The notes beneath the pieces were generated by a model. It saw only the letters and a list, made by a program, of their open reading frames with translations. It was not told the origin of the DNA and searched no databases. Shown here piece after piece: positions 24,355-38,596 of a stretch of 64,000 nucleotides of DNA. The position numbers were made by a program, and so were the translations under genes. Within the stretch, counting starts at the first letter, position 1. The number at the start of each line of letters is the position of its first letter. Origin of the DNA: Candidatus Multivoradales bacterium (GTDB lineage: Bacteria > Acidobacteriota > Thermoanaerobaculia > Multivoradales > JAHEKO01); contig CBDCXM010000009.1 of NCBI GenBank assembly GCA_965223855.1, forward strand, positions 2,592,001 to 2,656,000, in the 5' to 3' direction.

Positions 24355-25593
24355 ATGAGACGACTCCTCGTCGCGGCGTTTCTTCTCCTTGTCTCTCCCC
24401 ACTCCGGAGACGCCGACTGGCCCCAGTGGCGCGGGCCCGCCCGTGACGGCGTCGCCTCGGGTGCGACTCTTCCCGAGAGGCTTGCGCCCCAGCTCGAAGA
24501 GATCTGGTCGCTCGAGGTCGGAGCCGGGCACGCTTCGCCCGTCGTCGCCGGCGACCGCGTCTACCTGCACTCGAGAGTCGGCGACGAGGAGGTCGTTCGG
24601 GCACTGTCGCTCGCCGACGGCAGCGAGCTGTGGCGGTGGGGGGCCGAGACTCCCTACAGCCGCCATCCCGCGGCGCTCTCTCACGGCAAGGGGCCGCGCT
24701 CGACGCCGCTGGTAGCCGACGGCCGGCTGTGTACCTTCGGCGTCACCGGTCGCGCCGCCTGCTTCGACGCGGCCGATGGGCGGCTGCTGTGGCAGCACGA
24801 CTTCGAAGGCCGCTTCGACCGTGCCTGGCCCGACTTCGGCGTGGCGATGTCGACGGGGCTCTTCGACGGAGGGCTCGTGCTGCACGCGGGCGGCAAGAAG
24901 AGCGGTGCGCTGCTGGCGCTCGACCCGGCGACGGGAGAGGAGCTCTGGGCCTGGTCCGCCGATCCGCCCGCCTACGCCTCGCCGATTCTGGCGGTGCTCG
25001 ACGGAGTTCCCCAGATCGTCACCCAGAGCCGGACGCGGGTCGTCGCGGTCGATCCCGGGAGCGGTCGTGAGCTGTGGAGCACTCCGTTCGAGACCGCCTA
25101 CGAGCAGAACAGCGTCACGCCGCTGTGGTTCGACGACCGTGTGATCATCTCGGGCCTCGACAACGGCGTGGCGGCCTACGAGCCGCACCGCGACGCTGCC
25201 GGGCGATGGGTCCTCCAGGTCGCGTGGAAGAACGACGAGGTGCCGATGTACATGAGCTCGCCGGTCGTCCGCGGCAACCTGCTCTTCGGCATGAGCGACA
25301 AGCGCAAGGGACAGCTCTTCTGCATCGATCTCGCCACCGGCGACACTCTCTGGAAGACCGAGGGTCGGGAAGGGGAGAACGCAGCCCTGATCGTCGCCGG
25401 GGATCGCCTGATCGTCCAGACCGACGACGCCCGCCTCGCGGTCGGCCCGGCCGTGGAAACGGGTTGGAGTCCCGAAGCGACCTACACCGTGGCCGACAGC
25501 CCGACCTGGGCTCATCCGGCGCTCGTCGGGGACCGGCTGCTCGTGAAGGACCGCGAGCGGCTGACCGTCTACCGCTTCCTGCTCGCCGACTGA
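24355..25593 (+). CDS. Secreted PQQ-binding-like beta-propeller protein
   Basis: Signal peptide; DWPQWRGPARDG; Trp-docking repeats; TWAHPALVG. Confidence 0.88.
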   Translation: MRRLLVAAFLLLVSPHSGDADWPQWRGPARDGVASGATLPERLAPQLEEIWSLEVGAGHASPVVAGDRVYLHSRVGDEEVVRALSLADGSELWRWGAETPYSRHPAALSHGKGPRSTPLVADGRLCTFGVTGRAACFDAADGRLLWQHDFEGRFDRAWPDFGVAMSTGLFDGGLVLHAGGKKSGALLALDPATGEELWAWSADPPAYASPILAVLDGVPQIVTQSRTRVVAVDPGSGRELWSTPFETAYEQNSVTPLWFDDRVIISGLDNGVAAYEPHRDAAGRWVLQVAWKNDEVPMYMSSPVVRGNLLFGMSDKRKGQLFCIDLATGDTLWKTEGREGENAALIVAGDRLIVQTDDARLAVGPAVETGWSPEATYTVADSPTWAHPALVGDRLLVKDRERLTVYRFLLAD

Positions 25594-25699
25594 GCTGGTC
25601 CGCCGCCGTCGCGCGCAGTCCCTGCCGGGGCCGTGCCCGCGGACGGGGTGCAACGAAACCCCGGCCGGTGGTGTCCCGTAGATAGCCCCAAGCCCGACG

Positions 25700-27112
25700 A
25701 TGATCTTCAACACGCCGATCTTCTTCGTCTTCTTCGTCGTCTTCCTGACGGTGTACGGCCTCGTGCTGCGTCGCCATGGCGCGCGAGTGTGGTGGATCGT
25801 GCTCGCGAGCCTCGTGTTCTACGGCGCGTGGAACTATCGCTTCATCCCGCTGCTCGTCGGCAGTGCGATCGCCGACTACTACATCGCTCTCGCCATCGGG
25901 CGAAGCGAGGACCCGGCGGTGAGGAAGCGATGGGTGACGCTGTCGGTGGCGATCAACCTCGGTGTGCTCGGGCTCTTCAAGTACGCCGATTTCGTGCTGC
26001 TTTCGGTGGCCGACTTCCTGGCGCTTTTCGGCATCGCAGCGGACCTGCCGACCCTCGCCTGGGTCCTTCCCGTCGGCATTTCGTTCTACACCTTCCAGAG
26101 CCTGAGCTACACGATCGACGTCTATCGCGGCGACATGGAGCCGCGCCGCGGCCTCGGCGAGTTCGTCGCGGCACTGTCGTTCTTCCCGCAGCTGGTCGCG
26201 GGCCCGATCCTGCGGGCGCGCCAGATCCTGCCGCAGATGCACGCGTTGCCGACGCCGACCCGGGAAGGGGTGCGGCACGGCATGCTCCTGGTGACCGCCG
26301 GGGTCCTCAAGAAGACCGTGGCCGACCTGCTGGCCGCTCCGGTGGCGCGTGCCTTCGACTCCGCCGGGCCGGTGAGCGTGCTCGAGACCTGGACCGGTGT
26401 GCTGGCTTTCGCCGGCCAGATCTACGGCGATTTCGCCGGCTACACCGACATGGCGATCGGCCTCGCATTGCTGCTCGGCTTCCAGATTCCGCTCAACTTC
26501 CGGGTGCCGTACTTCGCCGTGTCTCCGGTGGACTTCTGGCGCCGCTGGCACATCTCGCTCTCGACCTGGCTTCGCGACTATCTCTACATCTCTCTGGGGG
26601 GCAACCGCACCGGGAATCGCTGGCGCAACGTGATGATCACGATGCTCCTCGGCGGTCTGTGGCACGGCGCCGCCTGGACCTTCGTCGCCTGGGGAGCGTT
26701 CCACAGCCTCCTGATCGCCGGTACCCATGCTCTGGGGAGCCTCGCGCCGCTGCGCGCCTTCGGCGCCAGTGCCTCACGCCTCGCGACGACCGCCAAGTGG
26801 GCGGTGACCTTCTATCTGGTGCTGATCGGCTGGGTGTTGTTCCGCGCGGCGACGCTCGCCGAGGCCGGTACGGTGCTTGCCACCCTGCACGGCTTCTCGG
26901 CGCCGTCAGCCTCCGCGCCGACGGCGCTGATCGTCTTCGCCCTGACCTTTACGGCCCTGTGGCTGATGCACCTGATGGACCTGGTCGTCCTCACCAGAGC
27001 CGAGGCAATCGAGAGTCGCCCCTGGCTGCTGTGGCTGCTGGTGGTCCTCGGGCAGACCCTCGCCTTCACCATCGGAAAACCGAGCAATGAGTTCATCTAC
27101 TTCCAGTTCTGA
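25700..27112 (+). CDS. MBOAT family O-acyltransferase (AlgI/DltB-like)
   Basis: LPVGISFYTFQSLSY, FFPQLVAGPI, DFWRRWHISLSTWLRDYLY, GGLWHGA and C-terminal EFIYFQF. Confidence 0.94.
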   Translation: MIFNTPIFFVFFVVFLTVYGLVLRRHGARVWWIVLASLVFYGAWNYRFIPLLVGSAIADYYIALAIGRSEDPAVRKRWVTLSVAINLGVLGLFKYADFVLLSVADFLALFGIAADLPTLAWVLPVGISFYTFQSLSYTIDVYRGDMEPRRGLGEFVAALSFFPQLVAGPILRARQILPQMHALPTPTREGVRHGMLLVTAGVLKKTVADLLAAPVARAFDSAGPVSVLETWTGVLAFAGQIYGDFAGYTDMAIGLALLLGFQIPLNFRVPYFAVSPVDFWRRWHISLSTWLRDYLYISLGGNRTGNRWRNVMITMLLGGLWHGAAWTFVAWGAFHSLLIAGTHALGSLAPLRAFGASASRLATTAKWAVTFYLVLIGWVLFRAATLAEAGTVLATLHGFSAPSASAPTALIVFALTFTALWLMHLMDLVVLTRAEAIESRPWLLWLLVVLGQTLAFTIGKPSNEFIYFQF

Positions 27113-28391
27113 GGCGCCCGTGGCCGCCGAGTCCGAACGCTCGTCGCGGGCGATCTACGCTCGGACGCTCCTCGCGATAGGTCTCGTCGGACTGGCTGCG
27201 GTGCTGATCTTCAGGATCCTGACCATCGCCTTCGACGCCAGCGCGGAGACCATTCTCGGCAGAGTGACCGAGGCGCGAGCCGCCCTTCCCACGATCGTCG
27301 CCGAAGACGAGGATCTGGCGATGGTCTTCGGGTCCTCGATGGTCGATGCCGGCTTCTCGCCGAGGCAGTTCGATCGCGAGCTGGAGGAGCGGGGAGTCGA
27401 TCTCAAGTCGTTCAATTTCGGCTTCGGCGGGCTCAATCCGTACTTCCAGGACTTCTGGGCTCGGCGGATCCGGGAGAGCTTCGAGCAGGCCGATCGCAGA
27501 CTCGAGCTCGCCGTGATCGAGTTCAACCCCTTCCAGACCACGCAGGCGCGCTGGAACGGGGCGTTGCCGGCGGTCGATTCGTTCCTCGTGATGCTGGCCA
27601 GCCCGAGCGAGATGTGGGAGATCCTGCTCGAGGATCCGACCCGGGGGATACGGCTCTTCACCATCCGCTACCTGCGCAACGACATCTCGGCGGAGATGAC
27701 GACCTCGTTCTTCGGCCGTCCCCTGAGGCCGAGTCGACCGCGTAGCACCCTGCCACGCGACGAGGAGGCTGAAGCACGTTTGCGGGAGCTCGGCGAGGAG
27801 TTGGGCCGCCGTCTGGACGAGGACTACCCGGAGTATCCCGATGCGAACTGGTACTACCCGTGGCAGGGGTCCGGCACGTTGCCCGAGGAGCGTTCCGAGG
27901 AAACGCAGCAGGTCTACCACGACTACTACGAGGTACTCCGCGGCGAGCGCTATCTCGACGACGACAAGCTCAACCGCCTCCACTGCTGCGACGTCGAGGG
28001 CCTGCACTTCGAGCCGGTGCTCGTCGAGGCGTTCATCCGTGTCGTCGAGACGTTCCAGCAGTTCTCGGAGCGGGTCGAGGTGATCATGCTGCCGCGCAAC
28101 ACCGACTGGATCGAGTACTCCCCGGAGGCGCGCGCCCGGCTCGAGGAGGCGATCGCCCGCATCGAGAGTGGGACCGGGATCCCGATCCGCGACTTTCAGG
28201 ACCTCGACGAGATCACCCCCGAGATGTTCAGCGACACGACCCATCTCGCGCGGTACTCCGGCAACGTGGCGTTCACGAGCTTCCTCGCCGAGCGCTACGC
28301 CCCGATGCTCGGGGGCTCCTCGGAGCCGATCGACCAGGAGGGCGTCGCGACGGAAGAGCCGGCCGCTGCGGGCGAGACTTCGGGAGGTTGA
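27087..28391 (+). CDS. Membrane-anchored SGNH-like partner of the MBOAT (AlgJ/DltD/DUF1574-like)
   Basis: Overlaps the MBOAT 3' end; N-terminal TM segment; FGSSM (Ser), FNFGFGG and SDTTHL (DxxH). Confidence 0.72.
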   Translation: MSSSTSSSEAPVAAESERSSRAIYARTLLAIGLVGLAAVLIFRILTIAFDASAETILGRVTEARAALPTIVAEDEDLAMVFGSSMVDAGFSPRQFDRELEERGVDLKSFNFGFGGLNPYFQDFWARRIRESFEQADRRLELAVIEFNPFQTTQARWNGALPAVDSFLVMLASPSEMWEILLEDPTRGIRLFTIRYLRNDISAEMTTSFFGRPLRPSRPRSTLPRDEEAEARLRELGEELGRRLDEDYPEYPDANWYYPWQGSGTLPEERSEETQQVYHDYYEVLRGERYLDDDKLNRLHCCDVEGLHFEPVLVEAFIRVVETFQQFSERVEVIMLPRNTDWIEYSPEARARLEEAIARIESGTGIPIRDFQDLDEITPEMFSDTTHLARYSGNVAFTSFLAERYAPMLGGSSEPIDQEGVATEEPAAAGETSGG

Positions 28392-28419
28392 GCCGACGGC
28401 GCTGAGCCGAGGACGACGA

Positions 28420-29298
28420 TCAGGCGATCGAGAACTCGATCGCCGAGAGGGTCGCCACATCCTCGGAGGTGAGCTCCACCTGCGCGGCCGACAGGCTGTC
28501 GCGAATGTGCTCGATGCGGCGCCCGGCGGGAATGACGATCACGCTCTTCCCCTGGTGCAGCACCCAGGCAAGCACGGCGACGTGGGGTGAGACCCCGAGG
28601 CGCGAGGCGACCTCGAGCAGCTCCGTCATCTGCGGCAGCTTGCGGTTGAGACGCCCGCCGCCGACCGGGCTGTAGGCGAGGAACGCGAGCCCCTCCCGGT
28701 CGCAGTAGTCGACGACACCACCGGTGACCGACTCCCGGAAGAAGGGATTCAGGCGGTTCTGAACGCTCTCGATCGCGGTGATCGACCTCGCCTCCTCGAT
28801 CTCCGCGACACCGACGTTGGAGAGGCCGAGCCAACGGATCTTTCCCTCGTCCCGCAGCTCGGCGAGTTGACCGACGCTCTCGGCGAGCGGCACCTGCGGG
28901 TCGGGTGCGTGGAGCTGGTAGAGGTCGATCCGGTCGATCCCGAGCGCGAGCAGGGAGCGGTCGCAGGCGGCGCGCAGATGCTCCGGTCGGGCGTCGTTCT
29001 GCCAGCGCCCGTCCGGTCGCACGAAGCCGCCCTTGGTCGCGACGACGATCGAAGCCCGATCCCCCTGCCACTCGGCGAGAGCGCGAGCGATCAGCCGCTC
29101 GTTGTGGCCGGCCTCGCCCTGGTGGAGACAGTAGGCGTCGGCGGTGTCGATCAGTGTGACGCCGCCGTCGAGGGCGGTGTGCAGGGCGCGCACGGCATCC
29201 GTGACGCTCGGCCTGCCGTCATTGTCGGAGAGCGGCCAGGCTCCGTAGCCGACGATGCCGACCGAGGGAGCGTCCGGGCCCAGGGCTCGTGTCTTCAT
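28420..29298 (-). CDS. Aldo/keto reductase
   Basis: IDTADAY, VATKGG, IDLYQLHAPD, GLSN and AYSPVGG; ATG at 29298. Confidence 0.92.
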   Translation of the reverse strand: MKTRALGPDAPSVGIVGYGAWPLSDNDGRPSVTDAVRALHTALDGGVTLIDTADAYCLHQGEAGHNERLIARALAEWQGDRASIVVATKGGFVRPDGRWQNDARPEHLRAACDRSLLALGIDRIDLYQLHAPDPQVPLAESVGQLAELRDEGKIRWLGLSNVGVAEIEEARSITAIESVQNRLNPFFRESVTGGVVDYCDREGLAFLAYSPVGGGRLNRKLPQMTELLEVASRLGVSPHVAVLAWVLHQGKSVIVIPAGRRIEHIRDSLSAAQVELTSEDVATLSAIEFSIA

Positions 29299-29357: not shown

Positions 29358-30686
29358 TCAGAAGATCTGGCGCGATCGCACCGTCAGATTCCCCAGCAGC
29401 AGGCCGGTGACGATCGAGAACGCCAGCAGGACCATCGTGAATCCGGCCTCGATCCCGGAGACGACGTCGTTCGCCAGCAGCGACGAAACGCTGCGGAAGC
29501 CGAGGCTGCCGGGCACCAGCAGCAGGATTCCCGGCAGGATCGCGACTGCCGACGGCCACTGCCACCAGCGGCCCGAGAGATACCCCAGCCAGGTCACGAG
29601 GCAGGCGCCGATCAGCGCCCCCAGCTCGGGTCCGGCGGCGACGCTGCCGAGCCGCGAGCCGGCGAAGCTCACCGTGCAGGCGGCGAGTACCAGCGGCCAC
29701 TGTCGGGGGGCGGCCTGAAAGAGCACAGTGAGACCGGAGGCGATGATGACGAGGCTCACCGCGACCAGCCACCAGGCGAGCGGTTCAGGAGCCGCCGCGG
29801 GTAGCAGCGCGCTGCTGCCGACGGTGTCGAACCACCGTGCAGCCAGTCGGCCGCCGATCGCGATGCCGAAGCCGAGCTGCAGGAAGGCGATCAGCGAGCC
29901 GACGAATCGCGCCGTGCCGCTCACCAGATGGCCGGTCGCCAATTCGCTGACGGCGATCGTCACGGTCAGTCCCGGCACGAGGACGATGAGGCCGGCGAGG
30001 ATCGGTATGAACGGAGCCAGACCGTCGGCGACCTGGACGCCTGCGATCGAGAAGCCGGAGCTGAAGGCGAGGTGGCGCGCGGCCTGGACGGCGAGGACCG
30101 CGACGGCGCCAGCCAGCGTCGGGACGATCACGCCCACCCTCGGCGCCCGGCGCCCCGCTTCGACCAGCAGGCCGATGAGCAGGCCGAGGAGCGACGCGAC
30201 TGCGATCTCGGGCCAGCCGCCATCGAAGAGGGTGGCGGTGGCGCTCGACACGAGGGCGGCGCACACGACGTTGAGCCAGCCGTTGTAGGAACGGCGCTCC
30301 GTGCGCAGCGCTTCGACCTCGCGGGTCGCCTCACCGACCGGCAGCCGGCCGTCGATCACGGCGCGCACGAGCTTGTGCAGATGGGTCAGGCGGCCGAGAT
30401 CGACGACTCCCGGCCGCACTCGAAGCAACATCGTGCGCGGGGCCAGCTCAGGCCCGAACGAGGCGACGATCGAGGTCGGGGTGACGAGGAACTGCGCCGC
30501 GACCCCGAGCTCTTCGCTAACCTGCTCGAGCGCCTCCTCGATGCGGTCGGCCGCCATGCCGTAGCCGTGGAGCGCGCGTGCGAGGCGCATCAGGAAGTCG
30601 ATCTCTCGAGAGGGGCCGGTTGCGGAAACCTCCAACACCTCCGAGTAGACGGTATCGGAGCCCGATCCGGGGTCGGTGACGCTCAT
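29358..30686 (-). CDS. Threonine/serine exporter family (ThrE) protein
   Basis: LHGYGMAADRIE, VLVPGLTVT..SEL..GHLVSG and ILLLVPGS motifs. Confidence 0.88.
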   Translation of the reverse strand: MSVTDPGSGSDTVYSEVLEVSATGPSREIDFLMRLARALHGYGMAADRIEEALEQVSEELGVAAQFLVTPTSIVASFGPELAPRTMLLRVRPGVVDLGRLTHLHKLVRAVIDGRLPVGEATREVEALRTERRSYNGWLNVVCAALVSSATATLFDGGWPEIAVASLLGLLIGLLVEAGRRAPRVGVIVPTLAGAVAVLAVQAARHLAFSSGFSIAGVQVADGLAPFIPILAGLIVLVPGLTVTIAVSELATGHLVSGTARFVGSLIAFLQLGFGIAIGGRLAARWFDTVGSSALLPAAAPEPLAWWLVAVSLVIIASGLTVLFQAAPRQWPLVLAACTVSFAGSRLGSVAAGPELGALIGACLVTWLGYLSGRWWQWPSAVAILPGILLLVPGSLGFRSVSSLLANDVVSGIEAGFTMVLLAFSIVTGLLLGNLTVRSRQIF

Positions 30687-30695
30687 CGGAGGTCC

Positions 30696-32429
30696 TCAGT
30701 TGCCGGAAGCACGGGCGTCGAAGCTTCGCGAATCTGCAGCGCCTTCGAGGAGCCCCGATTCAGGGAGAACGCGGATCGCGTTGGCGGCCCCCTGCCGACG
30801 GCGCGACTCGAGCTGGTGGCCGCGCCCCTCGAGCAGCACCACCGTGTCGGGGGAGAGCGCCCACTCTTCGTGCCGGAGCTCATCCGGGAACCACTGATGA
30901 TGAATGCGTCCCGCCGCCACCGCCGCGCCGATGTTCATGCCGTGATCGAGGACGTTGAGGATCACCTGCAGGGTGGTGTTGATGATCGTCCGTCCCCCGG
31001 GGCTGCCGACGACCAGCACCGGCCTGCCGTCCCGCGCGACGATCGTCGGCGTCATGCTCGACAGCATCCGCTTGCTGGGAGCGATCAGGTTGGGAGTCGT
31101 GCCGATCCGGCCCTCGGTGTTGGTGTCCCCCGGGACCGGGTTGAAGTCGCCCATCTCGTTGTTGAGCAGGAACCCGGCACCCGCGGCGACGAGGCGCGAG
31201 CCGTAGCTGTACTCGAGCGTGTAGGTGAGGGCGACCGCGTTCCCCTCGGCGTCGACGACCGAGAAGTGCGTGGTCTCTTCGCTCTCGGGTCGGAGCTCGA
31301 AGCTTTCGTCGACTGCGCTGGCGGTAGCGCGTTGGGGGTCGATCGAGGCTCGCAGCTGGGCCGCGTGCTCCCTGGACGTCAGCCGCGCCACCGGCATCTC
31401 GGGATTCCACTCGGGGTCTCCGAGGTGGAGTGCCCGGTCGCGAAACGCGCGCCGCATCGTCTCGGTCAGCAGATGCACGTAGGCGGCGGAGTTGTGGCCG
31501 AGCGCTTTCAGGTCGTAGGCCTCGAGCACGTTGAGCATCGTCACGAGGGCGATCCCTCCCGAGCTCGGCGGCGGCATGCCGTAGACGTCGTAACCCCGGT
31601 AGGTGCCGTGGATCGGCCGCCGTTCGACCGCCTTGTAGGCAGCGAGGTCCTCGAGCGTGATCAGCCCGCCCTGTTCACGCATGAAAGCGTCGAGGAGGCG
31701 TGCGGTCTCGCCTTTGTAGAAGCCGTCGCGGCCGTCGTCCCGGATTCGCTCGAGCGTGCGCGCGAGGTCGGGCTGGCGCCAGATTTCGCCGGGCTCGTAG
31801 AGCTCGTTGCCGGGCTTGAGGAAGGCTGCGGCGGTCGCCGGCCAGTCCTCGGCCCGCTTCCGCACCTCCTCCAGGAACGATTGCATCGCCCAGGTCGAAG
31901 GGACTCCGTCGCGGGCGAGGGCCACCGCCGGCTCGATTAGTTCCGCCCACGGCTTCGAACCGAGCCGCTGATGGGCGAGCCACAGCCCGGCGACCGTGCC
32001 GGGAACGCCGACCGAGAGAATTCCTTCGTGATTGGGCTCGCCGGTCAGGACTCCGTCGTCGTCGAGGTAGAGAGTCTCCGTGGCGGCCAGGGGGGCTTTC
32101 TCGCGGAAGTCGAAGGCGGTGACTTCGCCGTCGGCGCCGTGGAACACGAGGAACCCGCCGCCCCCGATGTTGCCGGCCGAAGGGAGCACCACCGCGAGCG
32201 CAAAGGCGGTCGCGACGGCGGCATCGACCGCGTTGCCACCCTGCCGCAGGATCTCCTGCCCGACTTCCGTGCCCAGATAGTGGCTGGACGCCACCATGTG
32301 ATGGCGCGCCTTCGCAGGGGTGCGGCCGCTCTGCGCACCTCCGGGAGAGGCGTCATCCATGACCAAGCATGAAAGAACAGCAAGGGTCGCAACCGACAGC
32401 CCTCGCAGACGACCGGACAATCTCGCCAC
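30696..32429 (-). CDS. ggt: Gamma-glutamyltransferase
   Basis: GGNAVDAAVA, DFREKAP, PPPSSGG, ETTHFSVVD (nucleophile Thr), LNNEMGDF, KRMLSSMTP and GSPGG. Confidence 0.95.
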   Translation of the reverse strand: MARLSGRLRGLSVATLAVLSCLVMDDASPGGAQSGRTPAKARHHMVASSHYLGTEVGQEILRQGGNAVDAAVATAFALAVVLPSAGNIGGGGFLVFHGADGEVTAFDFREKAPLAATETLYLDDDGVLTGEPNHEGILSVGVPGTVAGLWLAHQRLGSKPWAELIEPAVALARDGVPSTWAMQSFLEEVRKRAEDWPATAAAFLKPGNELYEPGEIWRQPDLARTLERIRDDGRDGFYKGETARLLDAFMREQGGLITLEDLAAYKAVERRPIHGTYRGYDVYGMPPPSSGGIALVTMLNVLEAYDLKALGHNSAAYVHLLTETMRRAFRDRALHLGDPEWNPEMPVARLTSREHAAQLRASIDPQRATASAVDESFELRPESEETTHFSVVDAEGNAVALTYTLEYSYGSRLVAAGAGFLLNNEMGDFNPVPGDTNTEGRIGTTPNLIAPSKRMLSSMTPTIVARDGRPVLVVGSPGGRTIINTTLQVILNVLDHGMNIGAAVAAGRIHHQWFPDELRHEEWALSPDTVVLLEGRGHQLESRRRQGAANAIRVLPESGLLEGAADSRSFDARASGN

Positions 32430-32548
32430 GCTAGACTCCTTCCAGACAGCTACAGACTGAACTGCTATTCGGTGATCCTAGCGGAAGTTAGGGAGCTACC
32501 TGACGAGGTGATCCGGTAGCGCATTCTCCGGGAGAAGGGGGAGATTTG

Positions 32549-33847
32549 ATGCGAACGAGTTTATGGATGGTCGTGGGAGTAAGCATGCTCGCCTGTGCAT
32601 TTGAGGAAGCGCCGCAATCCGGTTTGAAGGTGGCCGTCGTCGGAGACGGCCTGCGGGTGCCGACTGGACTGCCGGACGAGGACCGGATCTGGCCGTTGAA
32701 CAGGGCGCAGGGTACGGCGATGTGGAGAGGCGCTAAGGCTGCCTATGATCACTCGCCCCGAGTGCGCGCGGCGCGAGACCACTTTCAGCTGGAAGCAATA
32801 GGCGACGATGGCAGCGACGTACAAGCTGATCGCGTCGCGATGGAGATAGTGAGGGATCCCTCCTATCTCGCGGTGATCGGGCATGCGGCTTCCTCCACCA
32901 CATATGAGGGAGGCAAGCACTACAGCCGCGCTCGATTACCGCTTCTCATGCCAATCGCGACTAGTCCCAGTGCCGTGCATCCTCCGGGGCGTCTCGAAGT
33001 GGCGGCGAGACTTCCCAGAACCTTTAGGTTGGCTCCGGCAGATGTCCCATTTCAGGCCGCGGCCGTCGGCCTGACGCTGAGAGAGCTGGGCGCTTCTTCC
33101 ATTGCGTTGATCGTGGATGATACGCCGGGCGCTAGGCGCTACTCCTTTCCCCTGAAAAACGCCATAGAAGACTATCTGCAGGAGCAGATACGGTTACAGT
33201 TTCCCATCGATAAATTGCAGGCACCGAGTTACTCTGGTCTGATAGATCAGATCTATGGAGAAGATGTCGATGCTGTCGTTTTCGTCGGCTACGCATCGTC
33301 GGTGATTTCGCTTCTAGCAAGTCTGAGGGACTCCTCAAACTCAAATGGTTCCAGACCTGCAGTTATCCTCACAGACGGCTGCAAAGCCCCGGATATTGAG
33401 AAGTTCCTCGAAGGCCTTGAAGTCTATCTAACTTTTCCGATTGCGAGTGTTGCCCGGCTTGACGAGAGTCAGTGCAACCCCGACGATCTAAAGATCTTGC
33501 GGGATGCAGTGTCGAACGAGTCCGAGGAGTCGTATGAGATGTTCGGCTACGACGCCGTTCTACTTGTGGCGCAGGCTGTCGAAGAGTGCGTGCTCCGCGG
33601 CCTAGACCGAGATTGCCTTGCGTCTGTGTTGGAGGATCTCTCGCAAAGAAGCTTCGTCGGGGTCTGCGAGCCCTATAGTTTCCTCGGAGGAGACAATCAA
33701 CATTCGGCCTACTACGTCTATCGCAGCCTTCCCGTTCAGCCTGGTGAGAAGAGCAGCACGAGCCTGTCCGTGTGGCGGAGGTACTCAGGCGATGAGCTGA
33801 GGAGGTTCTCCAATTTGCGTTCGAGATCCGAGGCGAGCGAAGGATGA
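32549..33847 (+). CDS. Branched-chain amino acid (LivJ-type, class I PBP) binding lipoprotein, low GC
   Basis: GGGGAG RBS; lipobox MLAC; AVIGHAASSTT, LLMPIATSP, TFRLAPAD, DAVVFVGY, ILTDG and FGYDAV motifs. Confidence 0.75.
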   Translation: MRTSLWMVVGVSMLACAFEEAPQSGLKVAVVGDGLRVPTGLPDEDRIWPLNRAQGTAMWRGAKAAYDHSPRVRAARDHFQLEAIGDDGSDVQADRVAMEIVRDPSYLAVIGHAASSTTYEGGKHYSRARLPLLMPIATSPSAVHPPGRLEVAARLPRTFRLAPADVPFQAAAVGLTLRELGASSIALIVDDTPGARRYSFPLKNAIEDYLQEQIRLQFPIDKLQAPSYSGLIDQIYGEDVDAVVFVGYASSVISLLASLRDSSNSNGSRPAVILTDGCKAPDIEKFLEGLEVYLTFPIASVARLDESQCNPDDLKILRDAVSNESEESYEMFGYDAVLLVAQAVEECVLRGLDRDCLASVLEDLSQRSFVGVCEPYSFLGGDNQHSAYYVYRSLPVQPGEKSSTSLSVWRRYSGDELRRFSNLRSRSEASEG

Positions 33848-35643
33848 AAGGCGTCTTCAGAGTTCTAGCTTCGCATCTCAGAGTCGGGTACGTAGGTGGA
33901 CTCGTTCTCCTTGATCTCGTCCTTTGGGTTCTGATTCTGTGGGACTGCTTCGCATTGGCAAGAAGAGAAGCTTCCCGGCGGACACTTGAGGCGGCCGCGA
34001 GCTTCGACTATGCGGCGCTGTCGAGAAGCGATCTTTCCAGGCTAGTTCTTATCCTGTTTGTGTTGGTACTTCTACTCCCGATCCTATTGGGAGCGGCTAG
34101 GATCACCTTCTTTAGTAGGACTCATTTCTCAAGGAGGTCCTGGCCAATCCGTGGCCGGGGCAGGGTTGTTTACGGCATTCACTGGCTATTGGCCCTAGGG
34201 TATGTGAGTGGACTGGCGGTACTGCTGCAAGCTGAGCGCTTGTCTGGTGTCCGGATCGTAGGTCAAGAGCCAGAGTTCAGCTATAGGAGCGCTTCAACAC
34301 TCCTTCTCGACGTGAGCAGCAGGGTCGTGGTGGGCGCGGTCGGCCTTCAGCTGTTTGCAATCGTATGTACTGAGGTCTATCAGATAGTCAAGGAGAAGCA
34401 GCGGCGTGCCCCATCCTCCGATAGGCCAGCGACGACCTGGTGGGGCTCGTACAAGAGCAAGACACTTCTTGCAGACCTGAAGAGTGACCTGTACCCGGGG
34501 TATCGAAGAAGCGGAAATTTTAATGCGGCTTCGATGGCCCCTGAACTCAGGGGCGTCAGGCGGAGGGCTCGCGAGCTTTTCGCAAGCTATCAGGCTCAGA
34601 CACCAGGCAGCCTTGCGTCCGGAGAGCGCCTCAACGAACTCTATTCTCGCTGTCAGGAGAAAATAGTCGCTCTCTTAGATGAAGGGACAAGGATGAAACA
34701 GTACCGTCTGGAGATACTGCCAGGTACTGCGCGAGCGCTTGATGTCGCGGTAGGGCGGGCCCGGGGGAGGCGGAAGAGGATCTTGTTGTCCCCGTTTGAA
34801 CACCCCGTCGAGCATGCGGTTGCTCGTTGGTTGGAGATCTCGGCTGGGTGTAAGGTCCATGAGTTCACGAACTTAGAGGATCTGGTGGACAAGCCTTGGG
34901 TTGCAACGATGGAAGCATTCTGCGGAAGCGTTGCCGCTGCGATTGAGGAGTACTCTGAGGCGGGCGAGTCGCCCATCCTCGTTATGAGTGAAGTGGCCTG
35001 GGCGAGCGGCTTGATAGTGCCAGTTCGTGAGGTAGTTGAGGACCTTGACCGAAGGATAGGGAGAGGAAAGTTCCAAGTTATCGTCGATGGCGCCCACGTG
35101 CCGGGTAACTTGGCTGTGGGGCGCGGTCTGGACTGTGCCGACTACTATCTGGCGAGTGCGCACAAATGGATGATGGCTCCAGATCCTTGCGGTTTACTAT
35201 TGAGTAGGCAGGGCGGCGACTTCTTCCCTGTTTATGACGGGTGGAGTGGTCAACTTCCCGAAAGCACTGCGAGCGTTCGACTTGTCTCTGGTCTCCTAGC
35301 CACGCTTGAGCAACTTGGGCCAAGAATGGGATACGTCCGTCAGCGGTCTTCGGAACTTGTAAGGGAGTTTCGGAGAAGGTTGCCGAGTCGGATCCAGGTC
35401 GTGGGCGAGGAGAGCGGTCTTGCCAACTCCTTCATGATGGCGGTCGAGCCTGAGGAGAAACTAGCGTGGCGATTCTCGAGTGCCAAGGAGATCGGGAGGT
35501 TCTGTGAGGCTCGAGGGGTAAGCTTGAATGCAATAGAAGCTCCGCACAATAGGATCTGGCTTCGAGTAGCTTTTCCCTACTTCCATGACGCTGGGAACGT
35601 GCGTAGGCTAGTTCGATGTTTAGAAGCATCCCTGGAGGGTTGA
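33844..35643 (+). CDS. 4-TM membrane protein fused to an aminotransferase class V-fold PLP-dependent enzyme, low GC
   Basis: ATGA overlap with the upstream gene; four hydrophobic helices in about aa 15-180; then FNAASMAP, SPFEHP, SEVAWASG, IVDGAH, ASAHKWMMAP (PLP Lys) and LRVAFPYF. Confidence 0.78.
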   Translation: MKGVFRVLASHLRVGYVGGLVLLDLVLWVLILWDCFALARREASRRTLEAAASFDYAALSRSDLSRLVLILFVLVLLLPILLGAARITFFSRTHFSRRSWPIRGRGRVVYGIHWLLALGYVSGLAVLLQAERLSGVRIVGQEPEFSYRSASTLLLDVSSRVVVGAVGLQLFAIVCTEVYQIVKEKQRRAPSSDRPATTWWGSYKSKTLLADLKSDLYPGYRRSGNFNAASMAPELRGVRRRARELFASYQAQTPGSLASGERLNELYSRCQEKIVALLDEGTRMKQYRLEILPGTARALDVAVGRARGRRKRILLSPFEHPVEHAVARWLEISAGCKVHEFTNLEDLVDKPWVATMEAFCGSVAAAIEEYSEAGESPILVMSEVAWASGLIVPVREVVEDLDRRIGRGKFQVIVDGAHVPGNLAVGRGLDCADYYLASAHKWMMAPDPCGLLLSRQGGDFFPVYDGWSGQLPESTASVRLVSGLLATLEQLGPRMGYVRQRSSELVREFRRRLPSRIQVVGEESGLANSFMMAVEPEEKLAWRFSSAKEIGRFCEARGVSLNAIEAPHNRIWLRVAFPYFHDAGNVRRLVRCLEASLEG

Positions 35644-35968
35644 TGCTGCAGAAGTGGTACAAGATTCACCTGCGTCTTGGAGGGTAGAGCCGGGTAGCGA
35701 GGGGCGGCGTCGAACGCTCGTTGGCGCAGCTGCGGAGTCGGTTCGGAAGAGAGGTCTCGCCACCTTGCGTCGGAGGCCCTGTTCGGGTGTGAGGTCAGGA
35801 ATGGGGCAGCGGTCACGATCTGCGTCGCCTGTGGTACCTTGAGAAAAGTTCTTGCTACAAGGCCGCGCCCGGGATCGTCTCGAGCGCGACTTCCGGCTAC
35901 GCGCAGGAAGAGGCGGGTGAGGAACCGGATGTCGCCCCTTCCTGTCCGATCGACAGAAGGAGACGCAT

Positions 35969-38596
<2,628 letters not shown>

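Follow-up and report, generated by a model that had tools for sequence, protein, structure and literature searches.

A low-GC two-gene island in a Multivoradales bacterium encodes a LivJ-like binding lipoprotein and a predicted membrane-anchored class V PLP enzyme

The DNA analysed in the present study, referred to as the window, was a stretch of 64,000 nucleotides from Candidatus Multivoradales bacterium (assembly GCA_965223855.1, contig CBDCXM010000009.1, positions 2,592,001 to 2,656,000 of the forward strand). It contained two adjoining genes on the plus strand. Gene 1 (32549..33847) encoded a LivJ-like solute-binding lipoprotein of 432 aa counted from the ATG at 32549, and gene 2 (33844..35643) encoded a membrane-anchored class V pyridoxal 5'-phosphate (PLP) enzyme of 599 aa. 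The open reading frame (ORF) of gene 1 was also open from a TTG at 32546 (32546..33847, 433 aa), and the residue numbers of gene 1 given below refer to this longer ORF. By direct reading of the DNA, a purine-rich ribosome-binding stretch, GGGAGAAGGGGGAG, was located before gene 1 (32530..32543, plus strand). The junction of the two genes read GAAGGATGAAA, in which the gene 2 ATG (33844-33846) and the gene 1 TGA (33845-33847) form an ATGA overlap (33844..33847, plus strand). ORF coordinates gave the same 4-nt overlap in four other loci of the family (L001, L031, L046, and L075). The pair was flanked on the left by ggt, on the minus strand (30696-32429; PF01019, 1.3e-168), and on the right by a TonB-dependent receptor with Plug and beta-barrel domains (35969-38596). 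The initial annotation had described two coupled genes of foreign base composition between these neighbours, and both parts of that description held. The guanine-plus-cytosine (GC) content of the pair was 56.7% versus 67.5% for the remaining window, and 500-nt windows gave 53-59% over 32750-35999 versus 65-72% on either side. Based on this GC dip and on a break in homology to a genome of the same genus (G002), the low-GC two-gene island was taken to extend from the ggt start to the start of the TonB-dependent receptor (32430..35968). An Rfam scan of 32000-36300 found no match at E<=1, and a promoter and terminator scan found no more sites than in shuffled sequence. For 32400-35800 no RNA data set was listed, and the three DNA-type sets that were listed came from a single study.

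A profile search with gene 2 among 1.84 billion representative sequences yielded 1365 matches at E<=0.001, 214 at E<=1e-10, and 143 at E<=1e-30, the last figure counting clusters at 50% identity. From the 151 sequences examined (150 listed ones and P0003), 106 were 555-635 aa long and the rest were mostly fragment-like; the conservation figures below refer to these 106 full-length homologues. The ten family clusters that were looked up were all singletons at 90% identity and carried generic names only. The fusion of a transmembrane (TM) domain with a class V domain is not a one-off, and the family included a single small clade of soluble forms. A homologue of gene 1 was located directly upstream of gene 2, on the same strand, in 17/17 assessable long-form loci elsewhere (L001, L023, L028, L029, L030, L031, L032, L042, L043, L045, L046, L047, L048, L052, L075, L076, and L078). 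Among these, L031 and L032 score identically and are maybe one sequence, and L029 is broken into pieces; L039, L040, and L044 begin at contig ends and lie outside the count. These results indicated that the two genes co-occur in other genomes as strictly adjacent partners. No further gene family was common to the 11 loci with flanks. The pairwise identities of the two proteins correlated with r = 0.80 over 11 pairs, a value reached by 0/2000 permutations, which fits what co-inheritance as one unit predicts. The named records of the long form belonged to Thermoanaerobaculia, Pyrinomonadaceae, Acidobacteriota, Paludibaculum, Acidobacteriaceae, Isosphaeraceae, and Gemmataceae, so that the pairs span records of Acidobacteriota and Planctomycetota. 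Elsewhere the pair was neighboured by glycolytic genes (recognised from translations), cytochromes, a sulfatase, Band 7, and restriction-modification genes. An MmeI-type restriction-modification gene followed the pair directly in a Pyrinomonadaceae metagenome-assembled genome (MAG; L023 3461-6415, minus strand), and a 1656-aa methylase-helicase ORF preceded it directly in a Gemmataceae MAG (L030 2-4972, plus strand). One homologue, P0142 (911 aa), was longer at the C-terminus by about 340 aa, and the AAA/STAND-like matches of this part were weak and below the cut-offs; this single case could be a fusion or a gene-calling artefact.

The gene 1 protein matched Peripla_BP_6 with an E-value of 4.8e-12 and a score of 46.6 bits (cut-off 31.7). 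A profile of 16 members of its family (A4) matched the solved amino-acid-binding proteins 4gnr (4.7e-24), 3td9 (5.9e-19), 3ipc (7.3e-18), and 3ip5 (1.3e-16), together with LivJ (1z15, 2.3e-16) and LivK (1usg, 2.5e-16). The N-terminus, MMRTSLWMVVGVSMLAC, had a hydrophobic core and Cys17 in a lipobox-like MLAC, and a signal peptide ending in this motif was assigned to 32549..32596 on the plus strand, with the Cys codon TGT at 32594-32596. All 17 homologues with a complete N-terminus had a hydrophobic N-terminus; the lipobox pattern was present in seven, five more showed a Cys just past the hydrophobic stretch when inspected by eye, and five were without either. These results agreed with the lipobox and class I periplasmic-binding motifs noted earlier for this protein. 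Judged from these matches, gene 1 belongs, as an exported, mostly lipid-anchored, and divergent representative, to the amino-acid-binding branch of the type I binding proteins.

Residues 222-599 of the gene 2 protein (34507..35640, plus strand) were assigned to a cytoplasmic class V (fold type I) PLP domain with the residues H320, D415, H418, K441, W442, and R574. Pfam returned DUF898 only, at an E-value of 0.26 that was taken as noise, and PF00266 (Aminotran_5) gave no match to the window protein at E<=1; the same model matched the family members P0014 (37.7 bits) and P0036 (52.1 bits) above its cut-off of 21.5 bits. The best NCBIfam match was PvdN (NF051467, 1.9e-7), with 30.1 bits against a cut-off of 650; the EgtE model TIGR04343 (16.2 bits) and the SufS model (13.8 bits) were below their cut-offs of 400 and 475.1. 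Searching the PDB sequences by phmmer gave C-DES at 4.4e-9 and PvdN at 5.2e-7. The alignment to C-DES placed SAHK441W on GHKW, D415GAH on DGAQ, and EH320P on EHP; the title of entry 1n2t gives the lysine of C-DES as K223. Lys441 (codon 35164..35166, plus strand), which aligned to the HKW of C-DES, is the predicted Schiff-base lysine. Structure comparison gave Z 33.8 for C-DES 1elq (root-mean-square deviation (rmsd) 2.9, 353 aligned), Z 33.8 for PvdN 5i90 (rmsd 3.1, 366 aligned; Foldseek target-normalised TM score 0.77), Z 33.2 for Egt2 (rmsd 3.0, 371 aligned), and Z of about 32.8 for SufS (rmsd 3.2, 354 aligned). Because these Z values lie within about one unit of each other, they do not separate the sub-families. 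A Z of at least 8 was found for all 1000 re-aligned chains.

The cofactor residues were conserved in most of the family, with K441 in 86 homologues, D415 in 103, H320 in 85, and R574 as arginine in 100. Columns with Cys in at least 40 of the 106 sequences were found at positions 270, 385, and 449 only. None lay in the C-terminal domain, and C449 was the sole Cys-rich column after the lysine. Since no C-terminal-domain cysteine was conserved, we concluded that the protein has no persulfide Cys loop of the IscS/SufS type, as the initial annotation had proposed. Its other statement on gene 2, four TM helices fused to a class V PLP fold with intact cofactor residues (EHP, DGAH, and SAHKW), was confirmed by the alignment and structure matches above and by the AlphaFold2 (AF2) model described below. 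Taken together, the comparisons suggest that the PLP domain falls within a C-S-lyase-like branch (C-DES / PvdN / Egt2) and has no persulfide-forming cysteine.

The AF2 model of gene 2, built on the 106 homologues, had a mean predicted local distance difference test (pLDDT) of 92.6 and a predicted template modelling score (pTM) of 0.91. It consisted of an N-terminal helix (residues 2-15), four long helices (18-40, 61-89, 107-133, and 150-188), with a beta-hairpin (136-145) between TM3 and TM4, and an alpha/beta domain from about residue 222. The averaged hydropathy of the homologues showed four peaks. A crude hydropathy count on each sequence gave four segments in 69, five in 27, six in 4, three in 5, and two in 1; the fifth segment of the window protein was rejected, as it arose where the scan window moved across the N-terminal helix and TM1. 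Because the crude count shows this spurious fifth segment, the count of four TM helices was taken from the family profile and the AF2 helices. The positive-inside counts agreed with an orientation in which the N-terminus faces inward. The number of K+R versus D+E per sequence was 2.1 versus 0.3 at the N-terminus (predicted inside), 2.1 versus 1.4 in loop 1 (predicted outside), 2.2 versus 0.2 in loop 2 (predicted inside), and 1.3 versus 1.5 in loop 3 (predicted outside). The charge bias and the four helices therefore placed the PLP domain in the cytoplasm.

Based on these results, residues 1-188 (33844..34407, plus strand) were assigned to an N-terminal amphipathic helix and a 4-TM domain. The conserved positions of this part were H11, R13, G15, D24 (66%), D34 (92%), P79 (99%), H113 (79%), and S134-G135 (G135, 99%). 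In the AF2 model, the outward-facing loops were about 20 and 16 residues long. The second carried the predicted periplasmic beta-hairpin after TM3 (residues 134-145, 34243..34278, plus strand), in which G135 was present in 105/106 sequences. A juxtamembrane linker (residues 189-221, 34408..34506, plus strand) with conserved Y203, L209, D211, and P218 joined the membrane domain to the enzyme. Folded alone, the TM domain had a pLDDT of 81.9. A Foldseek search of the TM domain against the PDB gave a best E-value of 0.74, and in the ESM Atlas the best score for residues 1-200 was 0.77, below that of shuffled controls. Other architectures of the TM domain were sought among longer proteins (alignment A5), and only four family members were found, which is weak evidence.

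The family contained two deviating sub-groups. The soluble forms (402-414 aa) start at a position corresponding to residue 225 of the window protein and are without the TM domain and the partner gene. All 12 short-form loci (L024 (7890-9113), L025-L027, L033-L038, L041, and L049, from Ca. Angelobacter MAGs and eight metagenome contigs) adjoined nonribosomal peptide synthetase (NRPS) megasynthase genes, on both sides wherever both sides were covered. These NRPS genes were multi-module, encoded more than 2600 aa, and overlapped the soluble gene or lay within about 100 nt of it. The short-form loci appear to represent an NRPS cluster, so far uncharacterised, in which a class V enzyme is embedded. 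A quick tree of the PLP domain (FastTree) grouped four soluble representatives in one clade (support 0.97) nested in the TM-fused family. Because the 12 loci belong to a single close lineage (Ca. Angelobacter in the named cases), we counted them as one event. The soluble clade shows that the domain can serve amino-acid or peptide chemistry.

In the second sub-group, the Schiff-base lysine was missing. It was replaced in 20/106 full-length members (P0056, P0089, P0093, P0094, P0098, P0099, P0106, P0110, P0113, P0116, P0117, P0119, P0123, P0128, P0131, P0133, P0134, P0138, P0150, and P0155) by R in 15, Q in 4, and H in 1, giving HRW, NQW, SQW, and similar motifs. E319/H320, H418, and S438 were changed in step with the lysine; D34, P79, G135, G389, and W442 were kept in 20/20 and R574 in 16. 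On the quick tree, the loss of the lysine corresponded to about eight parsimony changes, and because this tree is rough we claim several losses only. Three lysine-less loci, L052, L075, and L076, still had the partner gene, whose product in L075 and L076 retained nearly all family-invariant residues.

The distribution of the pair pointed to acquisition as a unit. The genome itself had one copy of gene 2, and among 40 relatives of the same genus, family, or order (including G005, which is flagged unpublished) no full-length match was found, the best match covering residues 368-592 at 7.8e-11. Among 400 genomes drawn evenly from the rest of the phylum, the family was present in one (G419), likewise with gene 1 upstream. 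G002, from the same genus, carried orthologues of ggt (73% identity) and of the TonB receptor side by side, without the pair; DNA similarity stopped at 32336 and resumed at 36149, with about 660 bp there versus about 3.8 kb in the window. The GC content of the pair was below that of its flanks in 10/11 loci (the window, L001, L023, L028-L031, L042, L043, L045, and L046), by 2.9 to 14 points, with host GC of 38-68%. At the island borders, no bounding repeats, tRNA-like ends, or mobility genes were found. The pair looks like one self-contained, horizontally acquired module. Comparison of the window with the syntenic contig of G002 (L064) also revealed three more unmatched stretches in 25560-28429 and 29358-30686; the genes without a G002 counterpart were an MBOAT gene (25700-27112), a gene for an unassigned 434-aa protein (27087-28391), and, at 29358-30686, an exporter of the ThrE family. 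The region around the two-gene island is variable in general.

Solute-binding proteins are known to work with ATP-binding cassette (ABC), TRAP, or TTT transporters, sensor kinases, or chemoreceptors. The initial annotation had remarked on the lack of a transporter beside the pair, and this was upheld, as no ABC gene adjoined the pair in the window. A search with PF02653 (LivH/M permease) gave 0 matches in the assembly, which is 92.5% complete so that absence is not proven; the same search was positive in 12/14 control genomes. The NCBIfam LivJ model gave the gene 1 protein 20.2 bits against a cut-off of 477. Together with the missing permease, this score set the protein apart from ordinary ABC-linked LivJ proteins. 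The same genome encoded another Peripla_BP_6 protein (481 aa, 2.2e-52) far from the pair (G000:C9:684719-685678; L065 1357-2802, minus strand), and its neighbours had no Pfam match. This protein may likewise work without an ABC transporter.

Collectively, the data support the view that the binding protein outside and the membrane-embedded PLP enzyme are a direct functional couple. The reading that we tentatively favour, with a probability of roughly 0.35, is an ATPase-less, binding-protein-dependent uptake coupled to PLP conversion. By the topology given above, gene 2 is an inner-membrane protein with both ends of its four-helix domain in the cytoplasm. The lipoprotein would capture a scarce amino-acid-like solute outside the membrane and dock on the 4-TM domain at its short outer loops, with Asp34 and the Gly135 beta-hairpin. 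The solute would then be released into a path through a dimeric 2 x 4-helix bundle with the conserved Asp24, Asp34, Pro79, and His113. The fused PLP domain would convert it immediately, so that chemistry, not an ATPase, would pull the uptake by metabolic trapping. The docking, the ligand's way through the TM domain, the type of ligand, and the reaction are inferred.

We rated uptake with conversion slightly above a gating role for several reasons. The membrane domain exposes short outer loops only, as in permeases, not a sensor domain. TM1 carries the conserved D24 and D34, alongside P79 and H113. Both proteins look built for alpha-amino acids, in the case of the enzyme by the presumed role of R574, and a two-gene cassette moving between phyla needs a self-sufficient function. 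In addition, most binding proteins serve uptake. As to contact between the two proteins, which a gating role would share, the predicted complex of gene 1 residues 18-425 with gene 2 residues 1-215 passed the mark weakly, with scores of 0.46, 0.51, and 0.61 in three runs (median 0.51) that agreed in at least 83% of contacts, with a partner pLDDT of at least 70; the best of three controls scored 0.00.

Several results weigh against this reading. The complex prediction was graded as weak support: the pass mark was reached by 58/80 solved complexes and 2/110 mismatched pairs, passing scores of 0.60 or less comprised 7/80 solved complexes and both passing mismatches, and the use of custom alignments makes the calibration only rough. 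The TM helices were weakly conserved, with a mean top-residue frequency of 0.18-0.32 versus 0.38 in the PLP domain, and TM4, which leads into the enzyme, was the least conserved segment, with no position at 60% or more. Comparison of the TM domain with 48,161 solved chains (VIA-align) gave a best Z of 5.1, to generic helical bundles only. Because the structure matches were only generic, they can neither name nor exclude a family for this domain. LivH/M permeases were present elsewhere in G041 and G042, the two other host genomes that were searchable, and the argument from the missing permease therefore holds for the genome of the window only. R574, which we take to be a carboxylate-binding arginine, was given this putative role because of where it lies and of what is generally known about fold type I enzymes. 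Finally, the lysine-less clades cannot trap a solute by catalysis, so trapping is not the whole story for the family. The weak TM conservation, the lack of a transporter fold match, and the lysine-less clades favour a receptor-enzyme, which was thus kept at near-equal weight.

As such a receptor-enzyme, the ligand-loaded lipoprotein would dock and switch the cytoplasmic PLP domain through the 4-TM domain while the ligand stays outside. The signal would run through the N-terminal HLRxGY helix and a linker helix at 199-210, and the PLP domain would act on an intracellular amino acid. We consider this possible, if somewhat unlikely. It shares the pairing, the topology, and the weakly predicted contact with the uptake reading. 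The best-conserved positions outside the PLP core were juxtamembrane (H11, R13, G15, Y203, L209, D211, and P218), and these positions and the partner gene were kept in the lysine-less members, which a transducing scaffold would explain better than a catabolic enzyme. In the one-chain model, the arrangement of the domains was also fixed, as its pTM indicates. Binding-protein-dependent sensors exist, such as LuxP-LuxQ, TorT-TorS, and ChvE-VirA, but in these known systems docking occurs on a sizeable periplasmic domain, whereas gene 2 turns only its two short loops outward. TM4, the sole covalent path to the enzyme, was the least conserved helix. No downstream signalling gene was conserved in 11 loci, which is awkward for a cassette moving between phyla, and within the literature that could be searched, a PLP lyase as a signalling output was without precedent. 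The initial annotation had proposed a module of this kind. None of its three refuting conditions held, and the idea of an undescribed module stands; control of a lyase by an external ligand would be one of two competing mechanisms, of which uptake was rated slightly higher.

A stronger form of the uptake reading would make the pair a new transporter class, in which the PLP enzyme replaces the ATPase or ion-coupled subunit, and formation of the external aldimine and its irreversible breakdown drive and rectify uptake. In this PLP-driven group translocation, which we regard as doubtful, the 2 x 4-helix dimer, without a known fold, would take an amino-acid-like solute from the LivJ-like lipoprotein, and the lysine-less sub-clades would bind it without converting it.

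A looser relation between the two proteins was judged improbable. The lipoprotein would feed an unlinked transporter, the TM domain would be a mere anchor keeping a catabolic or biosynthetic PLP enzyme close to the membrane, and the proteins would share a substrate without contact. Orphan binding-protein genes are common, and the permeases of G041 and G042, the weak conservation of the TM helices, and the weak pass of the complex prediction are compatible with such a pathway linkage. However, no PF02653 permease was found in the window's own assembly, the two genes were strictly adjacent in all 17 loci with several 4-nt overlaps, the near-invariant D34, P79, and G135 are unneeded in a mere anchor, and the cassette moves without a transporter gene.

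Still less probable, in our estimation, is a link to secondary metabolism, in which the enzyme would make or tailor an amino-acid-derived or peptide product at the membrane, in the way that PvdN tailors pyoverdine, and the lipoprotein would bind the product or a precursor for export, recapture, or self-protection. The constant NRPS neighbours of the soluble sub-clade, nested as it is in the TM-fused family, point in this direction, as does PvdN, which was the best NCBIfam match (far below its cut-off) and a joint top structural match. Against this, neither an NRPS gene nor another biosynthetic gene was conserved beside the long form in 11 loci, and the NRPS-linked loci represent a single event in one close lineage.

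The role in stress or anti-phage defence suggested earlier, in which an envelope signal at the lipoprotein would trigger a metabolite-depleting PLP enzyme, is very improbable: the patchy distribution, the low GC, and the restriction-modification-type genes beside the pair in two of the ten neighbourhoods examined (L023 and L030) would suit it, but the other eight held unrelated housekeeping or metabolic genes, PADLOC-DB 2.0 gave 0 families for both proteins at E<=0.1, the neighbours in the window are ggt and the TonB receptor, and neither genes of phages or mobile elements nor bounding repeats came to light.

The pair was compared with known systems that share one of its parts. The cystine C-S lyase C-DES and the C-S lyases Egt2/EgtE share the class V fold, the HKW lysine, an Asp 26 residues before it, the His of EHP, and the lack of a persulfide Cys loop; they are soluble, stand-alone enzymes at 11-18% identity, whereas the window protein has a 220-residue 4-TM module and an obligatory partner. 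PvdN, a pyoverdine-tailoring periplasmic class V enzyme, shares the best NCBIfam and a joint top structure match, but it is exported and soluble, whereas the window domain follows four TM helices and is predicted to lie in the cytoplasm, and pyoverdine genes were absent near the window pair. The cysteine desulfurases SufS, IscS, and CsdA have the same fold (Z 32-33) and the same cofactor pattern; the window protein differs from them in having no conserved Cys in a C-terminal loop. LivJ and LivK of LivHMGF (HAAT) share the Peripla_BP_6 family, export, and profile matches of 1e-16 to 5e-24 with gene 1, whereas the window protein is lipid-anchored and coupled to a TM-PLP gene, in a host assembly where no LivH/M permease was found. 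TRAP (DctPQM) and TTT (TctABC) transporters combine a binding protein with an ATPase-free membrane protein, and these systems include a small 4-TM subunit. Unlike these transporters and the sensors named above, the window pair has no 12-TM subunit, kinase, or periplasmic sensor domain, and its TM domain matches no solved chain. An exported binding protein was encoded with a membrane partner at each of the 17 loci.

To our knowledge, class V PLP enzymes are soluble proteins. We found no description of a TM-anchored class V enzyme, or of its pairing with a binding protein, in the full-text literature, a body of text whose coverage ends short of subscription journals and supplements. Each part of the system comes from a known superfamily (the class V PLP fold or the type I binding proteins), and the combination of these parts with a new membrane domain appears to be undescribed. 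In more than 100 clusters, of which the named ones come from Acidobacteriota and Planctomycetota, a binding protein and a class V enzyme are joined through a 4-TM domain without a known fold. The repeated loss of the catalytic lysine provides a natural control set of pseudoenzymes, and the two-gene module is directly testable in a laboratory host. Under either mechanism, the pair would represent a new kind of binding-protein partner and a new coupling of the outside to amino-acid chemistry inside the cell, and chemistry-driven uptake, if true, would be a new class of system.

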